The notes below the pieces were generated by a model. That model was not told the DNA's origin. It searched no databases and was given only the letters and a program-made list of their open reading frames with translations. 64,000 bases of DNA, from contig OZ260663.1 of the NCBI GenBank assembly GCA_965285935.1, forward strand, positions 99,262,001 through 99,326,000. The letters are read 5' to 3'. Shown here piece after piece: positions 302 to 35,820 of this stretch; positions within the stretch are counted from its first letter, which is position 1, and every line of letters starts with the position of its first letter. A program made the position numbers and the translations under genes. Source of the stretch: Ophelia neglecta. Its lineage: Eukaryota.

Positions 302-3300
302 CTCGCCATTGTCCCGAAGCCCAACCCACAGCATTCCGACGATGAAAAATCCGTGAACTAGCCGCGGAAAGGGGTCATCGCTGTCGTAAGGCCACTCATT
401 TGAATCAACTGCCACGTATTTGTTACGACGCAAGGCGTTGTCAACAGGTGCAGAGTTAAAACTGTCTGCCTTGTAGTCAGGTTTGCTAAGATACCTCGAG
501 AGGTTTGATTTCTCCGGGTGACTGTTTGGCATATATGCTTTAGATTCATTAGGAGAAGCATAAAGCAAATCCATTAGTCGATACCGCCAGGATAGTATAG
601 TCTTCCATTCCCTGTCCGAGTTGATGCTGAGGAGGTGACCTCCCTCTATCTGACAACTGTCCTCTGCCTGTTGCCAGGATGATGATCGCTTCTCAGATAG
701 GTACACTGAGTAAAGTTTGTCACCGAAACACATAACGTTAAGCTTGTTCTCACAGAGAATTTCTATTGATTTTTCCTCTGGCTGTTCCTTCACTGCATGC
801 GAGAAAAGCAGTTGGTAATCATCATCGCTTGTATCGTTGGTTATTATGGTTATAACAGCGGGGGTGTACAGAGGTTGATCATGGACTGTAATTAAACCAA
901 TTTCGGTAGGCTTGTATTCGTAGGTAAGTTCTCTCAGACTACCTTCAGAAGTGTACATACGCTCTTCGGTGCCTTCCGGTATGTGCAACCAGGAGAATGA
1001 ACGGCCATACAGTTCCGTTAAAGAACTCTTAGGCATTTTACGCTGAACTTTCCATTGTAGCGGACATGATATTATTACCGTAGGAAAGCGTTTCTTGGCA
1101 TATTTTTTATTTTGTGTTTTAGATCTTATCAAAATTTCCAATGTCCAAAGGGAAGTTCTTGCTTGAGAACGCCAGTTTCGTGTGAAATCGTAGGTGATAT
1201 GGAACACACCTGATGTGCGACCAAATGGTATTATCATTTGACTGCAAAAACTGTTTTTGAAAATTCTATGGCAGAAGTGCAACCAGACTCCGCAAGACTT
1301 ATTGTTCATGAAATCAGTTATTGTGGAACTAATTGATTTGTAAGTCAATAAAGGAATGTAATTGCTCAAGGTATGAATTACACATATAGTATTAATCGGA
1401 TCAAATCCGATATGGCTTGTGTAGGCATAGTACCTTTGGAAAAAGCAACGATTATGCACGTCACTTGAGCTCTGCTCAGGAGAAACGAGGAGTTGTATCT
1501 GGTCAAAGGCATACATATCGCCTTGTTCAAATACCATGTCTGAAAGCACAACAAACGGCCACACCTTGCTGAACAATATTGGTTGCGGATTTAAGAAATC
1601 ATAACATTCTTTAGCGCCGGGAAAATAATGTGTGAAAAACCACGTGCTCATTACCCATTTCGCCCATAGTTTACTGGAAAGTTCGGCATGTAGGATTTCC
1701 TTACCTAGCAAATCATCACTTGGGGCAAAAGTAAAGAGAATATGCGTCCCTATTTGTGTTTGACTCCTGTGTATGGAAGGTCTGTCACTAGGTAAACCTT
1801 GTATGAAAAAACAATCTCTTGTATTAATCAAGCGGTATTCTGCCTTCATCAAGTTTTTTTGGGGAATGCCGTATTCCAAGTTCAGCAAACCTCGACAGCC
1901 TCCAGGTCTAATAGTAGCCTGAATGTTTACATTGAAACCTTTGCTGTACCGTTGTATTACCAGACGTACATATTTCCCATAGCGTAGGTTTCCCACACCG
2001 TCCGTTAGATAAGTTTTTAACATATTAAAGCCACCCTTAGAACAAAACACAGCAACGTGCCTCAAGCGTTGTTGTTCACCATATTTTCTTGCATCGACAG
2101 TCGCATAAAATGCCTCCTCATTCTCAGCAAATAGATATAACGCGCCTGTGTCGCATCGATGGGTCATGTCATTTTTAACACTTAAAGATTTGATGTTAAA
2201 GTCAAGCACTAAATTATGGTTTGATTCCACCTCAAAGCTATTAAAAGTGGTTTTATCGTCTTCTGTTGTATCCATGTTTAGTTTTATCCCATTTTCGTTC
2301 TGGTGAATAAAATTATAATGCATGCGGCAGTTCATAGGATGATACATTTGACCTTGACAGTTGATTTCCTTCATTACTAAATGTATGGTCAAAAGAGAAA
2401 TAACTTGATTGTTCTGTTGAACAAATGCATTGGGCTTAGAAGTATAGAGTATTTGTCCGAGACCAAAACGTGTCCAACGTTGATCCATGTAATCCACTTG
2501 TTTGAAAAAGGCAATGCTCCTGATCATGTCATTGCAGGTGACGAGCATAAAATCGTTTTTATTATACATATGATGAGGAAAACTGGTTTTTAAATATGTT
2601 AACATAGTTTCAGGCAGTTCAAACACGTAAATGTACGTGTCATTATCACATACTCCGTCAGTAATCGTATACCCAATTCTATGTGTAACCGGCGCTCTCA
2701 CCTGCCACCACACAGTGAACATGTCATCAAATGTCCACTGGGACATAGCAAGGCCGGAGACATACATCGATAAATCGTTCATGTGCCATAGTTCTTTAAA
2801 ATCATAGATATGCTGGATTTTTTCAATATTCCAGTTGATCTGGTGTTCCTCTCGGATTGCCTCTATAAGATCGCTATCAATCACTGTGTATGACATTTCC
2901 AGTTTAAATTGGTCGTGTGGAGACACTACTGTCCTTACAACTAAACCACCATCAGAGAGAATATGAAGGTCTGTGACATTGCCACACCTTTGCAGAATCC
3001 ACAATGGATCGGCAAATAAATCTTCATTGGAATAAAAAGCGTCAAACTTAGTTGTATAACAAGGCGAGCTATACAAAAGCGAACGCATTTCCTTTAATGT
3101 GAAATTTATTGCATATTGCGGCCGATAATTAATAAAATAGATAAATTCCATCTTTGGACCTATCGATGGTTGAACGATTTGTATCGAGTCACACAATTTG
3201 GTCCTTGAATATCGTACAATGGAATATGGCGGTTTCCAATCATACCTGGACCGGACATCATCACAGAGAGAGGGTCTAACGGACAAACGCAACTGCTGCA

Positions 3301-3610
3301 GATAATATGACATGCCCCTGAGGCGTCCAGAAGCAGCAAACCTGTTCATATCATACCAGTACCTCCTCAGCAGTGGACTGAACCATGATTTGTACCATTT
3401 TGAGCTTGATATTCCCAGCGTGTGTGCAGAACCGAATGATCTCATGTTTGTTGAAATGACTGTCGTGTGCTTGACCAATACTTGCCCACTTTTGACATAT
3501 TGGATGTCCCCGCTAGTTGCCGAATTCACAGTGACAATTGCACTACAACCAAATCTCATCAAATTGGCAAACGTTACGAAAGCGATGATTGTCGCGAATG
3601 ACATTGTCAT
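302..3610 (-). CDS. Exon 1 (3.3 kb) of a large secreted/cell-surface protein: signal peptide, divergent CUB-like segments, N-terminal part of a C-type lectin domain
   Basis: Uninterrupted 1119-codon ORF. Hydrophobic N-terminus (MTMSFATIIAFVTFANLMRFGCSA). CTLD motifs CFGDKLYSVYLSEKRSSSWQQAEDSCQIEGGHLLSINSDREW and LWVGLRD. Donor GAG|GTATTA at 301 directly after WVGLRDNGE. CUB-like call is weak (spaced C/W motifs only). Confidence 0.85.
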
Positions 3611-4399
3611 GCTTACTTTCTTTAGTAATCCAACTGGTTTCTAAAGACCAATGCACCAATCAGAAGCAGAACTAGAACTAGGCTCACCCTATACCCTGCG
3701 GCTCTTTCACAACAGCAATCAAATGCAATGCATGTTATGGTAACACGGCACTTTAAGTATGTACCTGTAAATGTAGGTAAGTAAATCCATTCGACAATCG
3801 GTGAACTCTTACCTGCCTTACGCTTACTCCTGCCTTATATATATAACAACACAACCGAAAAAAAAATCATCTCGAAACGTAGCGATAAATTCTCATGAAT
3901 TACTAGCTAATGAAATTAGTGAAACACTATATTTCTCTTAGGGTTTATTCGAAAATGACTCCAAATGTCGTAGAAAAATTAAAAATCTGATGCCTCTTCT
4001 GATTAAGACGAATTTTTACAAAATGCAAATGTTAGCCAAAACGCATAGGCCATATTAAACTAATCTTATCATAATAGAAATGAAACATGAGTCCAAATTG
4101 AAATAAGAAGAGATAACTGATTTGAGATGTGTTTATCTTTTCTGTCGCCCATAAACAATTGTATACGTAACTCTTTGCTTACAAGTACTTATTTGCAGCT
4201 TATACATTTTCAGAAAACGAAGTATACCTAGATACAATGAGTAGATGGTGTATAGTCTCCATTTATATTTGCCATGATCATATAGAGCATACAAAAAGTG
4301 CAAATGCAGGGAGTCAGCTCATGACATTAATATTAACTGAATAGATCCAGGCAAAGGAGGCTACGGAAATGATAACAAAGACACGGATAATTTATAACA

Positions 4400-10254: not shown

Positions 10255-11557
10255 GGTAACCAGTTGGTTTTATGTCATAACCTTACCCTCCTAACAGTTC
10301 TCTATTTCGGCGTTTTTCTGTTTTTTCATACTTTCTTCTAGTGACTAGGCGTATTTGCGCGACTCGCATTCGGTTGGCTTTGAATGATTTGGTCACCCAG
10401 TAGATAATGGCATAATTGAAAATAAGTTCGCAAAGGTTGCCCTCTATTTGGCAGTCGACAATGAATAGCTTGATGACAAAACTACTCTTTTATGACCAAA
10501 GCTGGTGAAAAGAAGAAGTTGATACCTGACAGGAAAAAATGATTATGTTTACCGATAGCAGCACATGAGATGGGTCCAGGCAGGATTCGGCAGGGACCAC
10601 CACCGCAAGCGGTGTTGAATTTCAATGACAAATAAACCGGTAGATACGGCTTCAAACAATTAAAACTAGCCGTTTCTTCACTATTTAGGAAGTACAACCC
10701 TTCACTTTAACAAAGGCACATAACAAGTTATTTGTCAAAATCAGTTTAGTCTATTTCCAAGTATAGCTTAGATAAATAAATAACCCTGTAACGAGAACAC
10801 TGCAAAGCATTCGAGCAAAACAAGTCGAGTAACAGCGACACCACTCCCTTGTTTGCTGTCAGCGAATATTATGATATACATAATCATATTGAATATAAAG
10901 TAATCTATAAAACACATTGGAAGTAATGAAATTGAATTCGTGATAACTCAATCAACAGTGGTCTTTTTTGGACATGATTGACATGTTAATCTTGATAAAA
11001 CAGGTGTGCTTTTTAATATTACAATAACTAGACAAGTTGACTTTTAACCACTTAATATCAGTAAGATTAGATTTGAGCTGTTTTAATTTCATCGCAGGAA
11101 AATATGAATTGGAACTTTTTGTTTTGATGTAGCGAGGCATTAAAGAGGTAGCGTTTATGTAAATAAGAACTCTATATAAATTAGATAATATAAATTTAAA
11201 TTGAACTAAAACATAATATAATATATATCAGGCTCCATGTTGATTAAACCTTACCTGCGCTGCCTTAGTCTGAGACATGAGATGCAGTAAATCTTATGAC
11301 TTGCAATCTTTCCGCGGCCATTTTTCATTTTACATTTAAATGGAGCTAAGTTGGTTCTTCATCAGCCAGGATCCAAAACAGCCCACATTCCAATTAATTG
11401 GTGCCGAGACGGCTTTACATCAGCCAGGACAGAGGACGAAAGGCAGCCTACATTCCACTGGAGCAAAAACAACTAAACATCAGCCAGTATCCAAGACGGA
11501 AAGCAGCCCAAATTCCAATGGAGCTAAGACGACCCTACATCAGCCAGGACAAAATTC

Positions 11558-11860
11558 GATGATGGACGCAAAGCCTTGGTCTATGTAGCTTCATGGACCA
11601 TAGCCAGTGGGCTATGTGCGTGATGGACGTGAGGTAGTTGTCTATGTAGTGTGATGGACATGACGCAGTAACCTATGAAGCGTAGTAGACGTGGGGCAGT
11701 GGCCCAAGTAGCTTGATGGACGTGAGCCAGTGATCTATGAAGCGTAATGCACGTGATGCAGTGATCATGTAGTGTTGGACCTGGAGCGGTGATATATGTA
11801 GAGTTATTGACCTTATGCCGTGATGCAGTGGTCTATTTAGCGTGATGGATGTGAGATGCT
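11558..11860. repeat. ~30-bp degenerate minisatellite (second array ~17535-17895)
   Basis: Unit approximately tatgtagcgtgatggacgtgaggcagtggtc, about 10 copies. Confidence 0.85.
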
Positions 11861-13807
11861 GTTATTCTCGTCGCCATAGTAGAATTGTTTGAATATATAC
11901 GTCGTACCTAGATTGCTGTATTGTTTTCCGATCTGGACATTTATGTTGCAAACACGTCCACTGACCCTGTCACATAACAGGACAACGCTAATTCCTGTCA
12001 TTAATTTAAAACATTTTTTTTGCACCAGGTAATTAAAAGGTTTAAAGTCTTAGCTTCATCATTTATCACTTTGGTAACAACCCATCAATCAGATTTGATA
12101 CCACTAAAAGGCTGGACAGAATAGATCGACACCGCTATTACAGACATCATTACCCATATGCAGATTCTAAAGACGCATAAAAAAATACTTATTTATATTA
12201 AGCACAATGGTTAATTCACGTAGGTAAAGGACGTTTTATTTGCTTCTAGAATAACAAAAATCTATTTAACGATTTATGTTACTTTTAGGCTTGCGAAGCT
12301 ATGACAGTTCGACAGTTCGGCTGCGGTATTTCTCCAAATAATATATCACCATAGTGGTGGCGTATAGCCCCACCGATAATGGTTCTCCGTTAACTTTCCT
12401 CTTAAGTTCTTTGCACTGATCCACGATACCAACATGCACTATATACATTTACCATCCACATCATACACGTACAGCACCCCCGTACCCGCCACGTGATATA
12501 CTCAGTCGAAGCGGTCATCAGCCCCACCAGCCACTCACTATAAAATTACTGCTCGCACTCGATCACTGTGTTTGTGGTTTAGGCGGCTGAGTCAGTAGTA
12601 CGCGTACTCAGTGTCTAAATCTAATAAGATTTTAAAGCCACTAAAAATGTGTGACTAGAAATATGATGAACTGGTTTGAAGCACAGGGCCAACGAGTCAG
12701 TGCCCAAAGTGGGACGCGGATTAGACATGTCCTAGTAGATTAGGATTGCATATAAATATTAAAATGTCCGCATTAACTCGACTCTGGTGAAGTAGTAAAT
12801 CCTCCTTCCAGTTAGTAGTAACGTGGAAATTCGCTGCGTAATGCTAGAGTGAATTCCTATGGAAACCATCACTCAACCCTCAACAACTCCCATCCACCCT
12901 CCCTCCTACCAAAAACCCTGACACCTCACAGCATACTATATCATTTCCAGGAATTATGACATGGTGTTGCCAGTTATATTCCTTTACAGAGAAATATCAC
13001 ATTGTTAGTGCTGATTGGTCCATGGTCCTCATAACGCGACAGTAGCTGTACTCACCACCTACACACACTGCTATGCTCAGAAAGGTAAACAATTGCAGAA
13101 GGAAACAATCTAAAAGACACCCCCTGCCACAATAGCAGCCATTGTGGCCACATAAAAAAGTAAAAGCATATAGAACATCCATTACATTTGTTTATTTTGC
13201 CTTTCGATTACATAATTTGACAGAAACACTATCGACTTGGTGCAACACAAAATTTTAAGACATTTTAGATACATGTTATCTTTATATTACAATCGAACGA
13301 AAGTATTCATCATGTTCAAAGGTTCTAAACACCCTTCCTCAATTAACCGTTATAACATGGTCTCTATTGTATACTTAAGCGGATAAGCATTCTACTTCTT
13401 TAATGAACATAAATCTCACATTCAATTTTGGTTCTGAATGTTTTACAACTTTTCCAAGAGGCCCAATAAAATATGTAGATTTTAAGTAAGCTCGTTTTAG
13501 GAGACCCTAGATTCATCTCTTATTTACTTTCCAAACTCGGTTTCCATATCAAGCCATCATGTCATTATTTGTTGTCCCTGGTTACCTAACTAACTATTGC
13601 TTTATTCTTTGGAAGATAATAATACTAGAAGACGCCCTTCTTTAGGAGGAAGCGTAAACGGCTGAAAGCGACGTAAGCCTCTAGATCATCCCAGTGAATG
13701 ACAGGACTAATTTTTGTTTAATTTGGATGTGCAAAGAAGGGAGGACTATAAAAAAATATGTTTTATGTAAATAAATATTCATATATTCAATTCTAATAAT
13801 AATCAAT

Positions 13808-14125
13808 TTCCCTACAACAACTACAAAATGTCACTCATATATCTACACATATTTTCTCCTTTCATAGTTCATTAATAGATAATTTTTAGCATGTCTACAT
13901 GTAGTTACTAGCTCGGATCTTTTATTCAGGCTAGCTTCTTCTGGACAGCATATAATGTAATATTTCTCCCATATACAAAGGTTGCATCTGTTTGTTGATG
14001 GTTGGTATGCCTTTGCCTGCTTTACAATTTTCCAGCTAATGTCAAAATCTTCACAGTTACAGTTGTTTTGAAATTGATGGATAGAAGTCCACTATATCAA
14101 ATTGCAGAAACGTGTATTTCCTTTT
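13808..14125 (-). mobile_element. Penelope-like (Naiad-type) remnant, copy 1, without the ribozyme segment
   Basis: RT motif KYTFLQFDIVDFYPSISKQL joined to GIY-YIG C-terminus FDISWKIVKQAKAYQPSTNRCNLCIWEKYYIICCPEEASLNKRSELVTTCRHAKNYLL. Confidence 0.85.
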
Positions 14126-17078: not shown

Positions 17079-17427
17079 TTAATGATATTGCAGCAATAGC
17101 AAACACCACACGGATAGTACCGATAAAACAACCAACTCGTGTATCCCCAACCCATACAACCAATGTACAGACCGAGATGCCAAACCACCAACCACATCAG
17201 TGATACGGAAAACACAGCCGCACACGGTATCCCTAGCCCATACCATCAGTATACAGAGCAAGGAGGGAGACCAACCAGCTGTTCTTAAGAGTTCCTTTCC
17301 AGTAAAATCAACTTCGACTTTTGCATCTCAACATACCGTAGTTGCCAGCAACTCGTCTAAGGCAAGTGCTACCTAGGACGTCATAACAATGCCGCGACCA
17401 TCGGACTTATAACCAGGGTAACTCCTC

Positions 17428-20358
17428 ATTCCACTGGAGAAAAGACAACTAAACATCAGCCAGGACCCAAGACGGAAAGAAGCCCATATTGAAAATGGTG
17501 CTAAGACGGCCCTACATCAGCCAGGACAAAATTCGATGATGGACGCGAAGCCTTGGCCTATGTAGCTTCATGGACCATAGCCAGTGGGCTATTTAGCGTG
17601 ATGGACGCGAGGCAGTTGTCTATGTAGTGTGTTAGACGTGACGCAGTAACCTATGAAGCGTAGTAGGCGTGGGGCAGTGGCCCAAGTAGCTTGATAGACG
17701 TGAGGCAGTGATCTATGAAGCGTGCTGCAAGTGATGCATTGATCCATGTTGAGTGTTGGACCTGGAGCGGTGATATATGTAGAGTGATTGCCCTGAAGCA
17801 GTGGGGTATGTAGCATGATGGTCGTAAGGCAGTGGTCTATTTAGCGTGATGGATGTGAGGCAGTTGACTATGTAGCGTGATGGCATGAGAAGCTGTTATT
17901 CGCGTCGCGATAATAAAATTAGTCGAATATATACATCGTACCTCGATTGCTGTATTGTTTGGACATTTATGTTCCAAAGACGGTCACTGGCCCTATCAAA
18001 TTACAGGACCACACTTACTCCTGTCATTAATTTAAGACATTATCGCATGAGTTAATTAAAAGGTTTAAAGTCTTAGCCTCATCATTTATCACTTGGGTAA
18101 CAACCCATCTGTCAGATTTGATACCGCTAAAAGTCTGGACAGAATATAGCGACACCCCTATTACACCCCTATTACAGACGCATAAAAAATTACTTATTTA
18201 TATTATGCACAATGTTAAATTCACATGGGTAAAGGGAGTTTTATTTGGTTCTAGAATAACATAAAATTTATCAAACGATTATGTTAGTTTTAGGCTTGCG
18301 AAGCTATGACAGTTCCAGGGCTGCGGTATTTCTCCAAACGATATATCACCATAGTGGTGGCGTATAGCCCCACCGATAAAAGTTCTCCGTTAACTTTCCT
18401 CTTAAGCTCTTTGCACTGATCAACGATACCAACATGCACCATATACATTTACCATCCACATCATACACGTACAGATCCCCCCGTAACCGCCACGTGATAT
18501 ACTCAGTCGAAGCGGTCATCAGCACCGCCAGCCACTCACTACAAAATTACTGCTCGCACTCGATCACTGTGTTTGTGGTTTAGGCGGCCGAGTCAGTAGT
18601 ACGCGTACTCAGTGTCTGAATTTGATAAGATTTCAAAGCCACAAAGAATGTGTGACTAGAAATATGAATAATGTGATTTGAAGCACAGGGCCAACGAGTC
18701 AGTGCCCAACGTGGGACGCAGATTAGACATGTCCTAGTAGATTAGGATTGCATATACATTTTAAATGTCCGCATTTATTCGACTCTGGTGAAGTAGTAAA
18801 TTCTCCTTCCAGTTAGTAACGTGGAATTTCGCTGGGTAATGCTAGAGTGATTTCCTGTGGAAACCATCACCCTACCCTCAACAACGCCCAAGCCACCCTA
18901 CCTCCTACCAAGAACCCTGACACCTCACAGCATACTATATCATTTCCAGGAATTATGACATGGTGTTGCCAGTTATATTCCTTTACAGAGAAATATCACA
19001 TTGTTAGTGCTGATTGGTCCATGGTCCTCATAACGCGACAGTAGCTGTACTCACCACCTACACACACTGCTATGCTCAGAAAGGTAAACAATTGCAGAAG
19101 GAAACAATCTAAAAGACACCCCCTGCCACGATAGCAGCCATTGTGGCCACATAAAAAAAGTAAAAGCATATAGAACATCCATTACATTTGTTTATTTTGC
19201 CTTTCGATTACATAATTTGACAGAAACACTATCGACTTGGTGCAACACAAACTTTTAAGACATTTTAGATACATGTTATCTTTACATTACAATCGAACGA
19301 AAGTATTCATCATGTTCAAAGGTTCTAAACACCCTTCCTCAATTAACCGTTATAACATGGTCTCTATTGTATACTTTAGCGGATAAGCATTCTACTTCTT
19401 TAATGAACATTAATGTCACATTCAATTTTGGTTCTGAATGTTTTACAACTTTTCCAAGAGGCCCAATAAAATATGAAGATTTTAAGTAAGCTCGTTTTAG
19501 GAGACCCTAGATTCATATGTTATTTACTTTCCTAACTCGGTTTCCATATCAAGCCATCATGTCATTATTTGTTGTCTCTGGTTACCTAACTAACTATTGC
19601 TTTATTCTTTGGAAGATAATAATACTAGAAGACGCCCTTCTTTAGGAGGAAGCGTAAACGGCTGAAAGCGACGTAAGCCTCTAGATCATCCCAGTAAATG
19701 ACAGGACTAATTTTTGTTTAATTTGGATGTGCAAAGAAGGAAGGACTATAAAAAAATATGTTTTATTTTTGTCAGAGTTCTTCACATGAAAGAATTCCAA
19801 AAGTGCTCGACGCACAGTTTTTGTGCAGAGCAATATATACAAAATAAAATAACACAAACTCAAAATTGACTCATTATTATTCCTACTGTAAGTTTCATGA
19901 CTGCGGGGTGCAGCCATTCATCAGGGAATACATAACTCAGATTTGCGTTCAAATACATCGTTATAATTTCAATAACATTATATCGTCATGTCAACCACAT
20001 GCCGTGATGTCATAAACAATGGAATCTCCCAAAAGGGGGGATTCCCTACAACAACTACAAAATGTGACTCATATATCTACACATATTTTCTCCTTTCATA
20101 GTTCATTAATAGATAATTTTTAGCATGTCTACATGTAGTTACTAGCTCGGATCTTTTATTCAGGCTAGCTTCTTCTGGACAGCATATAATGTTATATATC
20201 TCCCATATACAAAGGTTGCATCTGTTTGTTGATGGTTGGTATGCCTTTGCCTGCTTTACAATTTTCCAGCTAATGTCAAAATCTTCACAGTTACAGTTGT
20301 TTTGAAATTGATGGATAGAAGTCCACTATATCAAATTGCAGAAACGTGTATTTCCTTT
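17428..20358. repeat. Segmental duplication copy C (paralog of 11454-14125)
   Basis: Collinear alignment; carries an extra ~275 bp (19767-20041) that includes the hammerhead. Confidence 0.9.
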
Positions 20359-20420
20359 TATCCTCCAGCGATTTAAACAATGCTACAACATCTGCCGTAC
20401 TTGGTAGAGCTTTAGCTGTA
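19770..20420 (-). mobile_element. Penelope-like (Naiad-type) retroelement remnant, internally deleted, with 3' pLTR-like region
   Basis: RT fragment TADVVALFKSLEDKRKYTFLQFDIVDFYPSISKQL (~20296-20400), then GIY-YIG C-terminus with RCNLC...LNKRSELVTTCRH, stop TAG at 20077-20079, then a hammerhead ~150 nt downstream. Confidence 0.85.
19878..19930 (-). ncRNA. Type I hammerhead ribozyme (minimal, PLE-associated)
   Basis: Minus strand UAUUCC-CUGAUGA-AUGGCUGC-acccc-GCAGUCAU-GAA-AC-uuaca-GU-A-GGAAUA. Stem I 6 bp, complete core, stem II 8 bp (one G-U), very short stem III, GUA cleavage triplet. Confidence 0.9.
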
Positions 20421-21224
20421 TTATACACTCTTTTGCTCTGGTGTAACTCAACTTCTTGTTTTGTTTTATTAAATGACTTATCTTGCGTGACCTAAATGCT
20501 GGCCGAAATAAGTAGTCGTTTGAATCAATTTTCAATTTTGCAGATTTCATATATCTTTGTAGAATTTCATAGGGGCATGCTGATGACTCGCCCCTGGCCA
20601 CTACTACCTCCCTGCCGGACCTGTACACATCAGTTTTACTCTTACTGATTTGGATGGTGACATGATCCTCTTTGAATTGAACATCATTACATAATAAGTT
20701 ATTGATCTCAGTGAATCTTAGAAAACCTGCGTATCCTTATACAATCATTGCTAAATCTCTTAAATCTATAACGTCGGTGGTACCTTGATACATGCTCTAT
20801 AGGGACTTCAAAATTTCGGAATCTATTACATCCTTCTTTTGTACTGGTTTAGTCGCTGTTCTCTTTGCCGTTTCTAGTAGATTTCTTACTAATTTACTGT
20901 CCTTGGGATCAGGATGGCCATTTAAGTTGTGTACCCATTTTATGGCATAGAAAGCAGCGGTGATCACATGGTTGGATTTCCCCTGGTCCAACAGACTTGT
21001 AATGTACATTGCTACATAAACTGGTTTTGCTGGTTTGGCAATTAGTTTATTCACTTCACAAAAATGCTCGAAATGCGAGAGAGAGTTTTTGTACTTTTTC
21101 ACGGTATTTTCCGACCTGGATTGTAGCAGGTATCCAGTCATATTGTCTATCAGACTTTCATTTCCGATCAGATCAACTCCGGTATCCGTGAACTTTCTCT
21201 TGAGTGATGACTTCAGGCCAACAT
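20420..21224 (-). pseudogene. Tyrosine recombinase (core-binding plus partial catalytic domain)
   Basis: SRSENTVKKY...AAFYAIKWVH; GFLRF (catalytic Arg region); KSKTDVYRSG...ACPY...LFRP...KLSYTRAKE. The H-x-x-R box and catalytic Tyr are missing. Confidence 0.85.
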
Positions 21225-22960: not shown

Positions 22961-23049
22961 TCCACCATTACCTCTTTCCGTAACGATGATTTGCCTTCGA
23001 TTTTGCGTGTCAGTTGTACTACTCTGTGTTTTTTGTTCTATACTTTCTT

Positions 23050-23746
23050 CATTACGGCAGTTACTTATAGTGCTACTTATCTTATTGTTGGAGCTGTTTG
23101 CCGAGCATTCTGGGGCCCCCTTCCAGTGCCCTGGTTTTCCATAGGCGAAACAAAGTCCAGGCTTACGTCCCTGTGACGCTGCATAGCTGGTCCCCTGTGG
23201 AAATGGTGTTTATTGCTGCTCAGGAACGTATCTAGCCGTGAGTTTCTTGTACGGTGCCGCTCTTGCTGTTCTGGTTTTCTAGACCATTGCTACCTTCCAC
23301 TTTCGTGTGGCCCGAGCTTCTGCTTTGTAGATACGCTTCTCATCCTCGGAGTCGCTTGCTTAGGGGTTCGCACGTATTCGTTGACCACTCTCCAGCCGAG
23401 CTCAGAAGAGTCCGCCATCTTAATGAGTTTCTGGCGCAGTGCCAACATGGCTTTTGCTTCAACTAGTTTTTCTCTTCCTTCTAGAGATTTTGAGGCGTCG
23501 CAGCAACCCTCAGCTGCCTGTAATTTCAATGTGAGTTAAGGATTGACCTTGTACTGCTCTTCGTTGCTTTTTCTCTTGAACTTGAACTGTTACGACATTC
23601 GTTACTGTTTCTAACTGAGGAGAATTAGAAACGCCACTTATCTTATCGAACATATTGCCCATCTCTGACAGCATATCCCTTTTGTTAGTTCCAGACTGGA
23701 CTTGAATTTTTCTTCCACGAGGTTCTCTAAGTCAGATGCGTCCATT
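23050..23746 (-). pseudogene. gag-like ORF of the YR element (second copy ~28850-29540)
   Basis: KRKSNEEQYK...[43 protein letters not shown], a motif typical of invertebrate DIRS/Ngaro ORF1. Confidence 0.75.
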
Positions 23747-25679
23747 TTGTTAAAGGCCTGTACCGGTGGCGTGTTGCCTCGATGAAGTCTGCGCTAGAAC
23801 TGGCCAACGTGCGGCCGGCCCATCTGGTCGCTTCAACCAGGCCACTCCTTCTGGCCCGCTCCTACTACCGTGTAGGCCTGGGCCTTTACAATACTCCCAA
23901 TACATGCATTGTCTACATTTCAATAAGACATTAGTTATCCGCTTTACGCTGTACCGCGGAGAACTGTGACTGTACAGGCTGATGGGGGTTGTACGGAGGA
24001 GCACGGGGGAGGGGGGTTGGGAGTGGGGGCAGACCGCTTAGCTCGAAGACGCCACTCCCCGGTGGGGCAAGTGCACGGGGGCTTGGTGTGGGATGGGTGT
24101 CTCCTCCCAGGTGAACATGGCTTATAGTGTAATATAGGACGCTGGGGATGTAATGTGTGGCTCATTAAATCAGGCCTGCTTTGCTCCCAGACCCACCCCC
24201 CACCCCCTCCCTAGGTAAACACCAAGACCAAGGGGCACTGGACGGGAGGTGGGGGTGGGGTAGACCGTCCCCTCGCCCATTCCACCCCCCTGTAAGCCCT
24301 CAGAACACCCCCCCCCCCCCCTGTCCACCATGGGGAGACACCCGTCCCCTCGCCCTTACCATGACAGCAGAGCTCCCCTTCCCCGACATCCCCATGAGCC
24401 AGTACCCATACAATACTGCTACACACATACTAATGTACTGGACCCGGTTGCTGAAAGCGGTATTAACTTTAATTTTAACTTTTAAGGATTTAATTAGCCT
24501 ATTACCGATTAGCCGACACCGCATTAATCCGTGTTTCTATTGACCATGATTAAGTTTAAGACCAAACTGCCAAGGTTAAAGACCGAATCCAGCCACTAGC
24601 AGGGGCGGATCGAGAGAGCCTGCCCCCCCCCCCCCACCCACCAATTTTTTTATACTCCGAACAAGCCCATTTAGGCGCCCAAAACATAGGCAACTAGATG
24701 CATGTATGTACCCGCCCCAGCTTCTGTGCCCCCCCCCTTTTTCAATTCCTCCACATAGAGTGGGCCCCCTGGGGGTTGGGGGTGGGGGGGGGGCAGGTTA
24801 GTGGGGGCCGGGGGGATGGGGTCACAGGGGTTAGAATCCCCGTCTCCTACCCTGAGCTCATCGTCCGTCTTATTGTATCTATAAGCTTATTTTCTGACGT
24901 TTAAAGCTGGTCGAGGTGTATACAAACACCGCTGTCAAACACTCAGCAGGTGTTAAAACTTCGGGGACGGGGGGGGGGGGGGGGGGTAGCTGAGTTGATT
25001 TATGGACAGGGTGAACGTTTATCTGCTAGGTATAGTTGGCCCATGAAAATGCTATTACCAAAGTGATGAATAAATACTCTTACCAATACAGAATTTGTAA
25101 AAAAAACAACAACAAGACAACACTATTTGGGCGGGACTTAACTGTACACCAGTTTTTAGGGGATTCTAAGAGACACCTGTATACAGATTGTCCGTTAATG
25201 GTGTATCTCCCCATTGGGGGTGGGGGTGGTGGTGGTGGTGGGTGGGGGTGGAGGTGGCGGGCGGGGGTTATTGTTGTTTTTTATAGGTCTATCTTTATTA
25301 TGATAGAGCCCCTCATTATGCGATCTTCCCGATAAATCAGGCTAAATTTCCGGCCTAGCTAGTTAGTTGAACTACATTAATGACATGCCTTATTTTCCAC
25401 CATCGAGTCCTCCATCTTTCTAATGAACTGATGTTGTGTCTTATTACAGTATAAGTTAGTAATTCGGTTAAAATGTAATGTTTATTGAAGTGGCCTTTTG
25501 TAACCTACCTACATAGTATATATATCTCCCGCAGTGAAGTTCACTGTGTTAAGGCGCAAACACTATAACAAGTCTGTTTTTTTCGATTTATTCACAGGGG
25601 GGAGGGGGGGGGGGGGCTCTTCCAAAAAAAATCGCATATAGGGGCTGGAGGTTGCATTACTGTACACTTGCCTGATGCA

Positions 25680-25862
25680 AAAACATACCCTTAGTCAGGG
25701 AATCTGACTTAAACATACCCTTGGTCAGGGAATCTGACTTAAACATACCCTTGGTCAGGGAATCTGACTAAAACATACCTTTGGTCAGGGAATCTGACTA
25801 AAACATACCCTTGGTCAGGGAATCTGACTAAAAACATACCCTTGGTTAGATAATTCTGACAC
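25680..25862. repeat. 29-30-bp tandem repeat x6 (second array ~31390-31570)
   Basis: Unit aaacatacccttggtcagggaatctgact. Confidence 0.9.
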
Positions 25863-26189
25863 ACAAAAGAACTTCGTAGGAAATATTTGAAAACAACCCA
25901 TTTTCATGGCTGTCTAGCCTGAAATAACAATATTTATGTACAAACGAGAGCATACGTTGCAACTTCAGGCATTATTATACAGAAAATGACTTTCTGAGAC
26001 ATATTTTAAGAGTGATAATTCATAAAGACCAACCCTTGGTTAGGGACATTTTGTTAAAAGAAACCTACAGATGGTTAGGGACATTAGCCTAGAAAAACGA
26101 TCCTTGTCTAGGCACATTTGCCCAAAGATCATCAATAGTAGTTATTTGAAGTGATCACGGACGTTGTCTGTTGCAGCTCCTGCCCGACT

Positions 26190-26338
26190 CATAAAGGCCA
26201 CCTGGTAATTCAGACCACTAATCTGAAGACCATAATGCAGCTTTTAATATAAATCAACCTGTCTAACCAGACCACCTCCTTAATCAGACCAGTAAAGTCC
26301 AGTCCCTTAGGTAGTCTCATTTCACAGGTTCCACTATA
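26190..26338. mobile_element. Possible one-ended Tc1/mariner-pogo-type MITE remnant (also ~31900-32047)
   Basis: Ends ...acaggttccacta-TA, resembling the TA-CAGTGGAACCTGT terminus; internal gaccac repeats; no second terminus seen. Confidence 0.4.
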
Positions 26339-26527
26339 TAATGAATTACTCATAAGGGTGCATTGTTAAAAAATACTGTAACTTAGGAATTTGTCGCGAA
26401 AAAGTCTGAATATTTACGCGAACTTTCTGGCCCGAGAAGATTGCGGTTCACGTTATATATGTTTGTCGAGAATTAGCCGGGTAGCATCCATTTCATTGTT
26501 TATTAGCGACTCGTGTGTATGTGTCAC

Positions 26528-27018
26528 CCCGGCCCCCCCCCCTCTCCCTGGGATGAGGGGGCCGCATGCGCAAAAGGGTACTTTTTGGGCTTTGATCTCT
26601 GGCCCGAGAATTCCCGAAGAAGGGTTACAGTTTTCTCCCGAGAAATTGAAAGAAGGGGTATTTTTTATTAGCCTCCCGAGAAATTGAAAGAAGGGGTATT
26701 TTTACAAGCATGTGCCGAGGAAAGGGTTGGAAAATTACCCGAGAATGGGGGGGGGGGGGGGGGGAGGGGGGGGATGAGAAACAACCTCATGTTGATGCCC
26801 CCTATAAATGGGATTAGGTGCTTCTTGGAGCCTGAGAATAGGGGGGGGGGGGTGATATTTCATCAAGCCTGAGTTAGGGGGTAAAAAACCTGAAAAACCC
26901 CGCGATAGCCTGATATAAGAGGGTGAAAAATTAAATGCCTTTCCTGAGATAGGGGTCACTTTTCAAAAGTGGTGAACAAGCATGAGTAACTCTCAAAATG
27001 GCGGAGTGGGGGGCCGGG
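26528..27018. mobile_element. Non-autonomous DNA transposon with CCCGG termini and 8-bp TSD
   Basis: TIR CCCGGCCCCCC / GGGGGGCCGGG; flanks TGTGTCAC and TGTGTAAC (7/8 match); internal direct repeats cccgagaaattgaaagaaggggtatttt. Confidence 0.7.
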
Positions 27019-30000
27019 TGTGTAACATGAGTGATATTATGTGATATTACAATTAAAACTATGCTGGTCAGACACGAAGCCTGCTCTATACTCAGGCCTA
27101 TGAATGGTATAAGGAATTATTGATAAGGATGAATTGTTCACAAAGAAGTGGAATTCGTCAACATTTGTTGCTCGGCAACATTCCCTGTATGTATGGGATT
27201 GACCTGCGTGCCCCCCTCCCCAGCCTACCCCCCCAGCTGGACATCCTGGTAAAAAGTGTCCCCACAAAACATAATCAGTCAGGGCTTCAAACATCCTGCT
27301 GGTAAGTGAAAAAGAGTAAATGAAGACCCATATAGCATTAGCAGCCATGCTGAGTGCCAATTGTGGGTCATCTCCGTTTTAAGGCTACTCGCTTTTAACA
27401 TTTTTCAAACTTTTGTTTATTAGGATAAAATTAATTTTGTTTCAGCATCCAAGTACAACCGCTAGTGCTCAGTAAAGTGAATAAAATACATAAATTTGGC
27501 CCACACTGTGCATTATAATGATATGTATATATGATGAACACACATTATTCAATTAGCTAGTATGAGGAAGTTTACATATCCAAGTAAATACAATATACAT
27601 GTATTCTTCCGCGTTTAGAGACTGAATAATGAACATTGTTACCCGCTCATCACAATTATATTCTTTTATCTAAAAAATGAAATTATATCTATATAACAAA
27701 AACATATTACCTGATAGAGTGAGGCTGCACTTGACAACATGACTTGTAAAGTCAGGCCTATACTTAATGGCACAGCGTGAAACTGTCGAGAGATATCGGT
27801 TGTATGCAGTTAAAAAAAAACAGACGTGGACTTTTAGAGTTCTCATTAAATTCCAGTGTCAGTGAAAAAACCTCTAGGTTCCCATTTGTCAGAAATGATT
27901 ACAGCTATTATATAAAAACACAAAAGTTGATTTATAGTGTGCTGTGCGTTATTTTAATATATAGATTATTACACGAGTCTGGTTGTTCAAGCACATTCTC
28001 TGTGTTGTTTTTGCTCTGTACGACAGATCTATCTGAAAGCGTGCCAATGCCTCTTAAAATCACCCATCAGTTCTGCCTATCATAATATACCCACTCTCAA
28101 GTGTCCATTTTAAACGAACTTTTGGAGCTATCGCAAAAATAAAATGTTCATGCAAGCCTGAGAACCTGTCCCCGCCGCCCGTTTGATGTTTTCGAATGAA
28201 ATGGGTTGTTTTTGGGCGGTTTCTGAATGTCTAAATAACGGGAGTGGACACCCGGCACACAAACTGAATCATTGGTCAAGGAGGTATATTCATTTAAAAC
28301 CAGTGGCAAATGGCTACTATAAGTCTACTAGAAACTACTGCTGATTGCAGGTGAAATCAATTTTAGTTGTTTTCATGACAAGTTCCTTCAAATTTTATTC
28401 TCTGTTAAGGAATTGGGGATAGATGTTTGCGAGGACTGACTGAACAGAATACTCTGGCTTACTAATTGTGTGTTAAGGTCGGATGCCCATTTCCGTTCTT
28501 TATATATAAAAATGATCCCCACCGATATTTAAACCTGTAAAAGGGCTTGAACCACGATATAAAATAGCACAATAACAGGTCAAACACCAATGACATGCAG
28601 AAGAGTACGGAGTTACTAAGGGTCAATTTAAATGGTATGATGAATATTTATTTCAGTGAGCACAGTTTTTCCGGAGGAAGAGGCCCCCCCCTAGCGACAA
28701 TTAAACACACTCCAAAGGAAACCGACATGGGGAGCTGTTGTTCAGCAGTGTGTGGGGTATAATAATTTTTAGTTGCGCTTTTAACAGGATCGGTAATCTT
28801 GACCGCATGAGTCGGTTAATGCCAGAACTTCTTCGTAATATTGTTTCTTCATTACGGCAGTTACTTATAGTGCTACTTATCTTATTGTTGGAGCTGTTTG
28901 CTGAGCATTCTGGGTCCCCCTTCCAGTGCCCTGGTTTTCCATAGGCGAAACAAAGTCCAGGCTTACGTCCCTGTGACGCTGCATAGCTGGTCCCCTGTGG
29001 AAATGGTGTTTATTGCTGCTCAGGAACGTATCTAGCCGTGAGTTTCTTGTACGGTGCCGCTCTTGCTGTGCTGGTTTTCTAGACCTTTGCTGCCTTCCAC
29101 TTTCGTGTGGCCCGAGCTTCTGCTTTGTAGATACGCTTCTCATCCTCGGAGTCGCTTGCTAAGGGGTTCGACTCGTATTCGTTGACCACTCTCCAGCCGA
29201 GCTCAGAAGAGTACGCCATCTTGATGAGTTTCTGGCGCAGTGCCAACATGGCTTTTGCTTCAACTAGTTTTTCTCTTCCTTCTAGAGATTTTGAGGCGTC
29301 GCAGCAACCCTCAGCTGCCTGTAATTTCAATGTGAGTTTAGGATTGACCTTGTACTGCTCTTCGTTGCTTTTTCTCTTGAACTGTTACGACATTCGTTAC
29401 TGTTTCTAACTGAGGAGAATTAGAAACGCCACTTATCTTATCGAACATATTGCCCATCTCTGACAGCATATCCCTTTTGTTAGTTCCAGACTGGACTTGA
29501 CTTTTTCTTTCACGAGGTTCTCTAGGTCAGATGCGTCCATTTTGTTAAAGGCCTGTACCGGTGGCGTGTTGCCTCGATGAAGTCTGCGCTAGAACTGGCC
29601 AACGTGCGGCCGGCCCATCTGGTCGCTTCAACCAGGCCACTCCTTCTGGCCCGCTCCTACTACCGTGTAGGCCTGGGCCTTTACAATACTCCCAATACAT
29701 GCATTGTCTACATTTCAATAAGACATTAGTTATCCGCTTTACGCTGTACCGCGGAGAACTGTGACTGTACAGGCTGATGGGGGTTGTACGGAGGAGCACG
29801 GGGGAGGGGGGTTGGGAGTGGGGGCAGACCGCTTAGCTCGAAGACGCCACTCCCCGGTGGGGCAAGTGCACGGGGGCTTGGTGTGGGATGGGTGTCTCCT
29901 CCCAGGTGAACATGGCTTATAGTGTAATATTGGACTCTGGGGATGTAATGTGTGGCTCATTAAATCAGGCCTGCTTTGCTCCCAGACCCACCCCCCACCC

Positions 30001-32237
30001 CCTCCCTAGGTAAACACCAAGACCAAGGGGCACTGGACGGGAGGTGGGGGTGGGGTAGACCGTCCCCTCGCCCATTCCACCCCCCTGTAAGCCCTCAGAA
30101 CACCCCCCCCCCTGTCCACCATGGGGAGACACCCGTCCCCTCGCCCTTACCATGACAGCAGAGCTCCCCTTCCCCGACATCCCCATGAGCCAGTACCCAT
30201 ACAATACTGCTACACACATACTAATGTACTGGACCCGGTTGCTGAAAGCGGTATTAACTTTAATTTTAACTTTTAAGGATTTAATTAGCCTATTACCGAT
30301 TAGCCGACACCGCATTAATCCGTGTTTCTATTGACCATGATTAAGTTTAAGACCAAACTGCCGAGGTTAAAGACCGAATCCAGCCACTAGCAGGGGCGGA
30401 TCGAGAGGGCCTGCCCCCCCCCCCCCACCCACCAATTTTTTTTTTACTCCGAACAAGCCCATCTAGGCGCCCAAAAACATAGGCAACTAGATGCATGTAT
30501 GTACCCGCCCCAGCTTCTGTGCCCGCCCCCCTTTTCAATTCCTCCACATAGAGTGGGCCCCCTGGGGGTTGGGGTGGGGGTGGGGGTGGGCAGGTAAGTG
30601 GGGGCCGGGGGGATGGGGTCACAGGGGTTAGAATCCCCGTCTCCTACCCTGAGCTCATCGTCCGTCTTATTGTATCTATAAGCTTATTTTCTGACGTTTA
30701 AAGCTGGTCGGGGTGTATACAAACACCGCTGTCAAACACTCAGCAGGTCTTAAAACTTCGGGGGAGGGGGTAGCTGAGTTGATTTATGGACAGGGTGAAC
30801 GTTTATCTGCTAGGTATAGTTGGCCCATGAAAATGCTATTACCAAAGTGATGAATAAATACTCTTACCAATACAGAATTTGTAAAAAAAAAACAAACAAG
30901 ACAACACTATTTGTATCTCCCCAATGGGGGTGGGGGTGGTGGTGGTGGTGGGTGGGGGTGGAGGTGGGGGGCGGGGGTTATTGTTGTTTTATAGGTCTAT
31001 TTTTATGATGATAGAGCCCCTCATTATGCGATCTTCCCGATAAATCAGGCTAAATTTCCGGCCTAGCTAGTTAGTTGAACTACATCAATGAAATGCATTA
31101 TTTTCCACCATCGAGTCCTCCATCTTTCTAATGAACTGATGTTGTGTCTTATTACAGTATAAGTTAGTAATTCGGTTAAAATGTAATGTTTATTGAAGTG
31201 GCCTTTTGTAACCTACCTACATAGTATATATATCTCCCGCAGGGAAGTTCACTGTGTTAAGGCACAAACACTATAACAAGTCTGTTTTTTTCGATTTATT
31301 CACAAGGGGAGAAGGGGGGGGGGGGGCTCTTCCAAAAAAAATCGCATATAGGGGCTGGAGGTTGCATTACTGTACACTTGCCTGATGCAAAAACATACCC
31401 TTAGTCAGGGAATCTGACTTAAACATACCCTTGGTCAGGGAATCTGACTTAAACATACCCTTGGTCAGGGAATCTGACTAAAACATATCTTTGGTCAGGG
31501 AATCTGACTATACATACCCTTGGTCAGGGAATCTGACTAAAAACATACCCTTGGTTAGATAATTCTGACACACAAAAGAACTTCGTAGGAAATATTTGAA
31601 AACAACCCATTTTCATGGCTGTCTAGCCTGAAATAACAATATTTATGTACAAACGAGAGCATACGTTGCAACTTCAGGCATTATTATACAGAAAATGACT
31701 TTCTGAGACATATTTTAAGAGTGATAATTCATAAAGACCAACCCTTGGTTAGGGACATTTTGTTAAAAGAAACCTACAGATGGTTAGGGACATTAGCCTA
31801 GAAAAACGATCCTTGGCTAGGCACATTTGCCCAAAGATCATCAATAGTAGTTATTTGAAGTGATCACGGACGTTGTCTGTTGCAGCTCCTGCCCGACTCA
31901 TAAAGGCCACCTGGTAATTCAGACCACTAATCTGAAGACCATAATGCAGCTTTTAATATAAATCAACCTGTCTAACCAGACCACCTCCTTAATCAGACCA
32001 GTAAAGTCCAGTCCCTTAGGTAGTCTCATTTCACAGGTTCCACTATATAATGAATTACTCATAAGGGTGCATTGTTAAAAAATACTGTAACTTAGGAATT
32101 TGTCGCGAAAAAGTCTGAATATTTACGCGAACTTTCTGGCTCGAGGAGATTGCGGTTCACGTTATATATGTTTGTTGTAGAATTAGCCGGGTAGCAGCCA
32201 TTTCATTGTTTATTAGCGACTCGTGTGTATGTGTCAC

Positions 32238-32715
32238 CCCGGCCCCCCTCTCCCTGCGATGAGGGGGCCGCATGCGCAAAAGGGGTACTTTTTGGGCTTT
32301 GATCTCTGGCCCGAGAATTCCCGAAAAAGGGTTACAGTTTTCTCCCGAGAAATTGAAAGAAGGGGTATTTTTTATTAGCCTCCCGAGAAATTGAAAGAAG
32401 GGGTATTTTTACAAGCATGTGCCGAGGAAAGGGTTGGAAAATTACCCGAGAATGGGGGGGGGGAGGGGGGGGGGATGAGAAACAACCTCATGTTGATGCC
32501 CCCTATAAATGGGATTAGGTGCTTCTTGGAGCCTGGGAATAGGGGGGGTGATATTTCATCAAGCCTGAGTTAGGGGGGTAAAAAACCTGAAAAACCCCGC
32601 GATAGCCTGATATAAGAGAGTGAAAAATTAAATGCCTTTCCTGAGATAGGGGTCAGTTTTCAAAAGTGGTGAACAAGCATGAGTAACTCTCAAAATGGCG
32701 GAGTGGGGGGCCGGG
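32238..32715. mobile_element. Duplicate of the CCCGG MITE in unit 2
   Basis: Same TIRs and flanks as 26528-27018. Confidence 0.7.
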
Positions 32716-33394
32716 TGTGTAACATGAGTGATATTATGTGATATTACAATTAAAACTATGCTGGTCAGACACGAAGCCTGCTCTATATTCCGGCCTATGA
32801 ACGGTATAAGGAATTATTGATAAGGATGAATTGTTCACAAAGAAGTGGAATTCGTCAACATTTGTTGCTCGGCAACATTCCCTGTATGTATGGGATTGAC
32901 CTGCGTGCCCCCCCCCCCCCAGCCAACCCCCCCAGCTGGACATCCTGGTAAAAAGTGTCCCCACAAAACATAATCAGTCTGGGCTTCAAACATCCTGCTG
33001 GTAAGTGAAAAAGAGTAAATGAAGACCCATATAGCCTTAGCAGCCATGCTGAGTGCCAATTGTGGGTCATCTCCGTTTTAAGGCTACTCGCTTTTAACAT
33101 TTTTCAAACTTTTGTTTATTAGGATAAAATTAATTTTGTTTCAGCATCCAAGTATAACCGCTAGTGCTCAGTAAAGTGAATAAAATACATAAATTTGGCC
33201 CACACTGTGCATTATAATGATATGTATATATGATGAACACACATTATTCAATTAGCTAGTATGAGGAAGTTTACATATCAAAGTAAATACAATATACATG
33301 TATTCTTCCGCGTTTAGAGACTGAATAATGAACATTGTTACCCGCTCATCACAATTATATTCTTTTATCTAAAAAATGAAATTATATCTATATA

Positions 33395-35820
33395 TTTTAT
33401 TTATTTATTAGATTTATATAGCGCCTATCCAAATAGCTCTAAGCGCTGTACATAAAGAAATACATGTAAAATCAATTTTATAAACAAACTATTTAAAATA
33501 TGACTAACGTTAATTTTGCAATTTAAGCACCATATGTGGAAATATTCTTGACAAGTAAGAAGTTGAATTAAAATTAAGTCACTGTACAATAAAAGATTTA
33601 GGCGATACTATTTCGATGTTAGCAATTATAGGCTGACCTAAAAAGATGAGTTTTAAGATTCTTTTTAAAAATATTAAGCGTTTTTACCACCAACAAGGAT
33701 TTTGCGGCTGACCTAAGAGTTCGAGGAGCCATATACGGTTGCAGAAGATCGGCAATGTACTGAGGTGCTAGTCCATTTATTGCCTTGTACGTAAGGAGGA
33801 TGACTTTATAATCCACTCTCCGAGCCACTGGTAGCCAGTGAAGCCTGAACAAAACCGGGATGATGTGATCTGTGCGACAGGCGCCAGTTATCAGGCGAGC
33901 CGCCCTGTTCTGAACCTTCTGTAGCCTGATCAAAAGGTTCTGACTTATCCCAGCCAACAGGGAATTCCCATAATCCAGCCGACTTATGACTAGAGCCTGT
34001 ACAAGAGTTTTGCATGTGTCCTCGGTCAGATAACGCCGTATGCGGCTAATGTTTTTCAGGTTGAAATTGCAACTTTTTATGACAGACACCACATGGGATT
34101 CCATGCTAAGGTCACTCTCAAAAAACACCCCCAGGTTTTTAACAGTAGGGCTGGTGTTAATTACACTATCACCGAATGTAAAACAGATATTCTGAACTAT
34201 CTCCTGACGTTGTCGGGGAGCAAAGAAAATTATTTCAGTTTTTCCCTCATTCAGTTTGAGAAGGTTAGTATTCATCCACGTTTGAATGTGGTCAACACAC
34301 TCCTCAATGCGCCCAACGGAGGAGGTCGGGTCTTGGCCTGATTTCAGTACCATGTAGATTTGGGAGTCATCAGCTTAGGCATGATATCTCAGGCCATGCC
34401 CCTCAAAAATAGTCCCAACTGGTCTGGAGTAGAGGCAATATTTCTTTGGCCCCAATACTGACCCTTGTGGGACTGCAAATTCCAATGACTTTTCTGACGA
34501 TTCAGTACCTTCAATAGAAATGACTTGGCACCGATCTGTCAGATAGGACTCTATCCATTTCAAAGCACTGCCTCTGATTCCAAACATATTATCAAATCTT
34601 TTCAACATTATACCGTGGTCCAGCGTGTCGAAAGCGGCCGACAGATCGAGCATGACAAGAACCGCTATATGGCCTCTATCCAGTGCCTCAGTAATGTCTG
34701 CATGTACCTTAAGCAAGGCGGTTTCTGTTGAATGGGCAGCACGGTAAGCAGACTGTAGAGGGTCAAACAACAAATTATCCTGTAAATGAGTATCAGTTCT
34801 TTTAGAAACTACCTTCTCACATATTTTCGATACAAAAGGCAAATTTGAAACAGGCCTGTAGTTTGACAGAGAGTCTTTATCCAGTCCTTGTTTCTTAGCA
34901 CGCTTGAAACTTGAAGGAACCTGAGAAGTCAAAAGCGAGTTGTTCACTTTTGCTGTCAAATATGGTAGTAACTCGTCCACACATCCCTTCAACAAGTTAG
35001 TGGGTAGCGGGTCTGCTTCACAGGATTTCGATGGGGATTTTAATACTAGCTGTTTAATTTCAGCTTGTGTGACTTGGCCAAAACTTGTCAGCGGAACACC
35101 ACAGAATTCAGGTTCAATGTCAGGTGACACAGCAGAGTCTGATGCTTTTGTATTCAACGTGAACAGTTTCTCCCGTATTTTCACAATTTTCATGTGGAAA
35201 AAATCACTAAAAGTTTCACAGAGCTGCAAAGTTGAGGGGCAACTTGGAAACTTGGGCTCCTTCTTATCTCCAGAAAGCAGCTTGCACAAACTGAACAGTT
35301 GCTTCTGGTTACCTTCAGCATCATTCACTTTACTTTGAATGTACTCTTGCTTTGTAAGGTGAAGTTGGTGGTTTGCCTCCATACATCTATCCTTGTATTG
35401 TTGCACGTGGACTGTAAGGTTTGTCTTTCTCATTAATCTCTCTGCTTTTCTGCATTCACGTTTCATTTCCCTCAGTTGTGAGTTATACCAAGGTGTTTCA
35501 GGCTTTATCTTAACAGTTTTGGTAACCAGTGGTGCATATAAGTCAAGCATCCGTGAAAGCTCTGCATTATATGTGTCAACAATGTCATTAACCTCAAATT
35601 GCTCCAAAGGCCGAGTCAATGATTTAATGATTTACAGCTTCTTATAGTCTCCCGTAGGTCGGGGAGTGAAATATCTTTCAGCTTTCTGTACATAACTGTC
35701 TTTTGTACTGGATGGCTGCGAGTGTTTGCAAACTTGACCTGAACGGCACAGTGATCAAGGGTCACCGATCCCCTGTCATCACCGATACCTGACCAAAAAA
35801 CATCTGGTTCACAGATTCAC
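33395..35820 (-). mobile_element. L2-clade LINE, 5'-truncated, ORF2 disabled
   Basis: NYRPVSNLPFVSK, QSAYRAAHSTETAL, LDLSAAFDTLDH, VPQGSVLGP, YHA*ADDSQIY, LHWLPV, FKKNLKTHLF. L2-type 3' end gcgcttagag...aggcgctatataaat plus (ATAA)n tail. Absent from the equivalent site of unit 1 (~27695). Confidence 0.93.

Follow-up and report, generated by a model that had tools for sequence, protein, structure and literature searches.

A hammerhead ribozyme motif on a decayed Penelope-like remnant, assigned to the Hydra clade by motifs, in Ophelia neglecta

The stretch of Ophelia neglecta DNA analysed here, a window of 64 kb, contains a type I hammerhead motif at 19930–19878 on the minus strand, assigned from sequence and structure. 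It very probably belongs to the terminal repeat of a Penelope-like retroelement (PLE) of the Hydra clade, present here as a broken remnant of ~650 bp, and this copy is likely no longer able to cut efficiently. We regard the window copy as a decayed passenger. The finding in the window matters little, since hammerheads are reported to be universal in Hydra-clade elements and this copy has decayed. Its residual value is practical, in that it points to a genome with a young family, intact ORFs, sharp ends and natural stem III variants. In vivo, PLE hammerheads may serve in cleavage and circularisation or may be dispensable passengers.

Read 5′ to 3′ on the minus strand, the motif consists of the 5′ strand of stem I (19930–19925, 6 bp), the core CUGAUGA (19924–19918), stem II (19917–19897; 8 bp and a 5-nt loop, with an A–U pair at the opening), GAAA (19896–19893), stem III with its loop (19893–19885; 3 bp and a 3-nt loop in the monomer), the cleavage triplet GUA (19886–19884) and the 3′ strand of stem I (19883–19878). 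The type I core CUGANGA/GAAA/UH is present at 19924–19918, 19896–19893 and 19885–19884, and three stems of 6, 8 and 3 bp are possible, with the ends of the motif in stem I. The cut predicted 3′ of 19884 by an earlier, sequence-only reading agrees with the position of the triplet. That reading had also placed a type I hammerhead on the ORF strand in a PLE terminal repeat, which holds: the core is complete, the stems are present, and the Penelope stop codon (20079–20077), likewise on the minus strand, precedes stem I by 146 nt. A motif descriptor, whose thresholds are lenient because they were chosen after the motif had been seen, matched once in the window, and there was no second hammerhead within the 64 kb. 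In dinucleotide shuffles, a loose match occurred in 2 of 200, and stems as long in 0 of 200.

Searching the whole genome with a hammerhead pattern gave 91 matches, compared with none for a reversed control. Over 14 distinct variants, 94.5% of the cells were paired, versus 23–60% for slid controls. Covariation among these 14 variants, which are related sequences, was thin, only one of the 17 pairs having both of its bases changed. Divergent hammerheads were sought near distant relatives, and the motif was found in 6 of 14 loci; all were close variants, and the covariation therefore remained thin. The Rfam search proposed in the sequence-only reading does not discriminate: no hammerhead family was found at the window motif, either at the gathering threshold (whole window) or at E ≤ 10 (13 kb; 301 bp), and this says nothing about the motif because a copy of the young family, run as a control, gave no match either. 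A snoU54 match at 19930–19993 was rejected as a chance hit (22.5 bits against a cut-off of 35). The flanks of stem I (19931–19945 and 19877–19865, minus strand) are conserved between subfamilies whose ORFs are ~73% identical in DNA; these flanks may lengthen stem I or make a loop contact.

The host of the hammerhead is a Penelope-like remnant of ~650 bp that extends from about 20421 to 19769 on the minus strand. It begins with a reverse transcriptase (RT) fragment bearing an FDIVDFYPSI motif (20294–20421), whose 35 residues are 77% identical to residues 252–286 of a 733-aa ORF from a young sister family in the same genome; the fragment also has a 7-nt deletion near 20402. An internal deletion of ~1.1 kb (about 380 codons), with junctions defined against copies L035 and L140, fuses this piece to the C-terminal tail of a GIY-YIG endonuclease with its CxxC and CxH motifs and stop codon (20077–20288), in which 52 of 66 residues (79%) are identical to residues 666–731 of the sister ORF. 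Next comes the 3′ terminal repeat region (pLTR, 19769–20076), which contains the hammerhead and at whose end, 19769, the family alignments stop. The duplicates L037–L039 carry (TA)n at the equivalent position. The last part, 19769–19832, is an optional “tail”: copies L035 and L142 end at 19833, and contigs in runs X1–X3 have loose ends with TA repeats there. (These runs are assembled contigs of one sample of unrecorded type, which cannot reveal RNA ends or expression.) The remnant is 95% identical in DNA to L035, a copy of the same subfamily.

Among the ORFs of the window there was no intact frame upstream of the hammerhead, and what the sequence-only reading took for a Penelope ORF amounts to the two broken pieces described above. 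The possibility that the upstream ORF is solely a tyrosine recombinase was rejected, given the Penelope remnant read between 20421 and 20077. A recombinase belongs to the unrelated neighbour, a broken retroelement on the minus strand that is traced from 20422 to about 23209–23466 and is cut within its recombinase gene, where it joins the Penelope remnant. We read this neighbour as DIRS-like from its domain set, which consists of weak Pfam matches below the cut-off to Phage_integrase, Phage_int_SAM_1 and Dam. The X1–X3 contigs diverge from the window sequence at 20422. Part of the DIRS-like element and its flank is duplicated at 97% identity (23044–27695 versus 28844–33394).

The RWK and DKT regions are deleted from the window copy, and these motifs were read in the sister ORF. 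That ORF (733 codons) is unbroken in 10 of 68 matches and occurs in head-to-tail units of ~2.5 kb with one hammerhead per unit. It has RWK (RMRWKA) and DKT (PADKT) motifs, a CxCX5C linker and a C-terminal endonuclease with CxxC/CxH around conserved E and N residues. The GIY-YIG domain was called by motif, and Pfam gave no family for the 733-codon ORF. The RT precedes the C-terminal GIY-YIG domain in a single ORF, in a unit of less than 3 kb; the remnant keeps that order, and its own endonuclease tail contains CNLC and CRH. The available part of Craig et al. (2021; PMC8557442) describes the Hydra clade by the same characters, namely RWK, DKT, CxCX5C, CxxC/CxH, a C-terminal endonuclease, a length under 3 kb and a (TA)n target, and the sister ORF agrees motif by motif with the Hydra proteins in the portion of the supplement that was accessible. 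Insertion into (TA)n is seen here in L037–L039 and in the sister family, in which 53 of 53 distinct 3′ junctions are TA-rich. Judged by its motifs, the element belongs to the Hydra clade, and the family appears to be a new one within a known clade, placed by motifs rather than by a tree and carrying a hammerhead of a known kind.

The sequence-only reading had called the host Naiad-type, a label under which the present motif would be a rare exception, a canonical hammerhead among elements reported to have none. Naiads are like the present element in being Penelope-like, with a (TA)n bias and with tandem and inverted copies, and some are described as having a hammerhead core without matching stems (accessible text of PMC8557442). 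However, that text gives Naiads an N-terminal endonuclease, a DKA motif and a length of 3.4–4.4 kb, and assigns canonical hammerheads to all Hydra elements while describing them as lacking in Naiads. Here, the domain order places the endonuclease at the C-terminus, the motif is DKT and not DKA, the unit is 2.5 kb, a canonical hammerhead is present, and the proteins that match by motif are those of Hydra elements. A Naiad host, for which the other point in favour is the earlier label itself, is refuted by the domain order and is so improbable that we set it aside. With the Hydra motifs and the published Hydra hammerheads taken together, the Naiad label is therefore wrong and the hammerhead is an expected feature of the element. 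In a Naiad, such a motif would have contradicted the published absence and deserved note, but the host here is no Naiad.

In Hydra elements, as far as they are covered by the accessible portion of PMC8557442, a canonical hammerhead likewise lies close to the 3′ end, and its stem III is a palindrome of odd length. In the hammerhead table of that paper, stem III is actt-n-aagt, the form also found here, in 7 of 26 Hydra rows, that of Penelope-4_HM is identical to that of the window subfamily, and a U at position 11.1, as found here, is common. Stem II is longer in our copies (8–9 bp, against mostly 4–7 in those rows), and the window copy differs from the published elements in being a deleted remnant with a private change in stem III. 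The tail between the two 3′ ends measures 64–71 nt here, compared to the 30–40 bp quoted for PLEs generally. Minimal hammerheads of PLE terminal repeats are described in similar terms by Cervera and de la Peña (2014; PMC4209133, in the part available), as type I with a long helix II, a short helix I, a palindromic helix III and a predicted action as dimers. No report of a Hydra-clade hammerhead assayed in vitro came up in our literature search; the paper of Lunse et al. (2016; PMC5785218) may contain such an assay.

The private change is at 19888 (minus strand), within the stem III palindrome, where the window copy has C in place of the family base A. In the 91 genomic matches, this base is C in 4 (the window copy and three segmental duplicates), A in 86 and T in 1; the search pattern fixed two of the seven positions after GAAA, that of 19888 not among them. 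All four C-bearing copies are on one contig (C5) and have flanks in common. The seven bases after GAAA form a G-centred palindrome in 76 matches and an A-centred one in 9, with the window form in 4 and other sequences in 2. A full self-complementary stem III suited to dimers is thus found in 85 of 91 copies, which, with the 3 bp of the monomer, bears out the earlier suggestion that the short stem III is of a type that depends on dimers. All contig depth at 19888 in runs X1–X3 had the family base.

The consequences of the change were predicted from nearest-neighbour energies, which describe secondary structure and take no account of tertiary contacts, Mg2+ or protein. For the stem III helix formed between two strands, the predicted energy is −0.1 kcal/mol in the window copy, compared with −3.4 in the subfamily and −6.0 in the sister family. 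The A-to-C change also creates a CAG that could pair with the CUG of the core, and in the window copy the hammerhead fold is predicted to be 3.2 kcal/mol worse than a competitor in which the core is paired. The predicted probability of the monomer hammerhead fold is 0.002, against 0.031 and 0.014 for the subfamily and the sister family. In an 88-nt context, the double hammerhead of the window copy lies 12.3 kcal/mol above two monomer folds, while those of three relatives lie 2.2–3.8 kcal/mol below. Neither as a monomer nor as a dimer, then, is an active fold predicted to be favoured for the window copy. The description of this hammerhead as intact-looking is right for the core, which is complete, and only partly right overall, because the private base (found in 4 of 91 copies, all duplicates) is predicted to weaken the dimer helix and to mispair the catalytic core.

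The window copy has kept every catalytic nucleotide and the whole of stem I (6 bp) and stem II (8 bp), so that cleavage could still occur. The copy might act as a monomer, or with partner RNA from its ~90 relatives, in read-through transcripts from the upstream same-strand DIRS-like element, which points into the hammerhead. The predicted energy of the monomer hammerhead fold, −13.0 kcal/mol, is the same in the window copy and the family, and assistance by protein has been shown for a PLE hammerhead in the part of PMC11167929 that was available. On the other hand, there is the better competing fold, the recombinase frame of the upstream element contains stops, and among the duplicates a stem II pair is broken in two (L038 and L039) and the motif is lost in one, as neutral decay predicts. 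We therefore consider an active window copy unlikely and favour a decayed one.

The copy that has lost the motif lies elsewhere in the window, at 13808–14125 on the minus strand, and differs from 20042–20359 at 3 of 318 bases. The sequence-only reading had correctly described a paralogous copy without the hammerhead segment: 19769–20041 is absent from it, as is the (TA)n. Beyond this, 11451–13766 repeats 17427–19766, and the interval 13767–13807 is flank DNA still present in L037 and L039, which preserve the original layout of flank, (TA)n and element. In the paralog, a deletion with its join at a short T-rich microhomology took out the TA tract along with 273 bp at the 3′ end of the element; one X3 contig shows the join, but with only 30 letters on one side, too few to carry weight. 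The window copy is missing its TA tract too, by a separate loss that also removed about 40 bp of flank. At its other end, the paralog runs into a different repeat from 14126. The proposed natural pair with and without a hammerhead is thus a DNA deletion that followed duplication, in a segmental duplicate that differs on the other side too. The paralog represents one insertion duplicated as DNA and then deleted, not a pair of mobile copies. In L038, a 707-codon RT frame, LINE-like by eye, lies directly past the TA tract at the 3′ end of the element (1553–3673).

Five copies carry the internal deletion, and all are on C5, within about 1.1 Mb and inside common flanks that are kilobases long; they therefore represent DNA duplicates. 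They show 1, 8 and 9 differences in 591 bp. Natural comparisons better than the paralog are offered by L037, whose hammerhead is the same as that of the window, L038 and L039, with their additional stem II break, L035 and L141, which have the family base, and L012, which belongs to the sister family. Alternatively, the deleted unit of ~650 bp might have been mobilised in its own right, as a non-autonomous, retrozyme-like element: it is short, it exists in five copies, its 3′ end and hammerhead are both retained, and PLE terminal repeats have been proposed as the source of retrozymes (bioRxiv 10.64898/2026.07.22.740005, in the part available). Metazoan non-LTR retrozymes also have type I hammerheads, with short-helix-III forms that need dimers, but they are described as non-coding tandem units of 170–400 nt (PMC7229834 and the same preprint, from the parts available), whereas the window contains the remnant of a coding element spread by segmental duplication, with a single hammerhead. 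Given the confinement of the five copies to about 1.1 Mb inside shared flanks, and the finding of no tandem array of the unit, mobilisation is very unlikely, in a copy search that scored 40 of 165 candidates and does not fully exclude remoter copies. In the favoured history, one retrotransposition into (TA)n would have given rise to the insertion, which would then have decayed neutrally by the internal deletion, the loss of its upstream part and the A-to-C change in stem III. Segmental duplication would then have carried it to five places spread over about 1.1 Mb of C5, with a later loss of the hammerhead from one of these copies. The region is a mosaic of such duplications over about 1.1 Mb of C5, including 11451–13766, 17427–19766 and 62184–62770 of the window and loci L037–L039 and L147–L149.

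The young sister family forms head-to-tail and inverted arrays of 2.5-kb units with about 75 near-identical hammerheads, at loci of genome G000 that include C7:89846000–89856000 (L031, L032), C5:37903000–37910500 (L033), C9:17486000–17492000 (L034) and C2:110438000–110447000. Its ends were mapped at all 93 sites that have the 23 bases following the cut site of the family. All of the distinct 3′ junctions lead into TA-rich sequence, with 34 at +50 to +54 and 17 at +125 or +126, and these two fixed ends are 71 nt apart (loci L046–L186). In inverted pairs there are usually one long and one short arm, one ending at each 3′ site. The window copy ends at +115, the long form of its subfamily, and other subfamily copies end at +51. 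Upstream, there are 45 distinct junctions within 135 nt, with 1 at the cut site, 8 at 18–25 nt and 7 at 54–57 nt upstream of it, so that the 5′ ends do not gather at the cut site. These junctions are not fully independent, because two or more of them are small internal deletions and others are the two arms of one event. Several fold-backs have their junction within stem II, or at an AGCT palindrome immediately 5′ of stem I (L046–L186). The first ATG of the sister ORF is about 180 nt past the cut site.

The odd-length palindrome of stem III would provide 3 bp in a monomer and 4+4 bp between two copies, and the hammerheads of two head-to-tail 2.5-kb units would therefore fold as a double hammerhead. 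This would cut after GUA, probably slowly or with the help of the protein of the element. The near-complete retention of the palindrome fits such dimer action, but is largely an effect of the young family. The two fixed 3′ ends would mark where reverse transcription starts, 54 or 125 nt beyond the cut site. With such a start, copying must cross the cut site, and linear RNA with a ribozyme-made 5′ end would therefore not be the usual template. The template would be either uncut RNA or re-ligated circles, which the present data do not separate. Circularisation of cut RNA was proposed in PMC4209133 and reviewed in PMC6765202, according to the parts of these papers that were available. For the Poseidon element PAc of Anolis, the accessible text of PMC11167929 reports two reverse-transcription start sites 3′ of the hammerhead in vitro, and insertion in vitro that used uncut RNA and had no need for hammerhead cleavage. 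The two starts of PAc define a tail, and these results agree with the pair of fixed 3′ ends and the scatter of 5′ ends in the sister family; PAc differs in belonging to another clade and in that its ORF begins inside the hammerhead, rather than about 180 nt past the cut site. We offer only tentatively, as a somewhat doubtful reading, that the young family records reverse transcription of ribozyme-cut, re-ligated circles, in which copying more than one round of the 2.5-kb unit would have given the head-to-tail arrays and left 5′ ends at various positions a short way before the cut site. If this were true, the ten unbroken ORFs, the strong dimer helix and natural, dead-looking variants like the window copy would make the genome a ready test of PLE hammerheads in vivo.

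Several other features were observed in the window. At 39197–48022 there is a fragmented LTR retrotransposon, which we take to be of the Bel/Pao type, with matches to DUF1759, integrase and DUF5641 and flanking 590-bp direct repeats that are 99.5% identical. A LINE-type reverse transcriptase (RVT_1) lies in two frames at 33619–35631 on the minus strand. A single-exon ORF of 1119 aa at 251–3610 (minus strand) is hydrophobic at its N-terminus; its sole match, to C-type lectin, is weak, and part of the ORF is duplicated in L148. On the plus strand, 57231–58949 contains a single-exon ORF encoding a 572-aa rhodopsin-family receptor (7tm_1, E = 2.9e-23).
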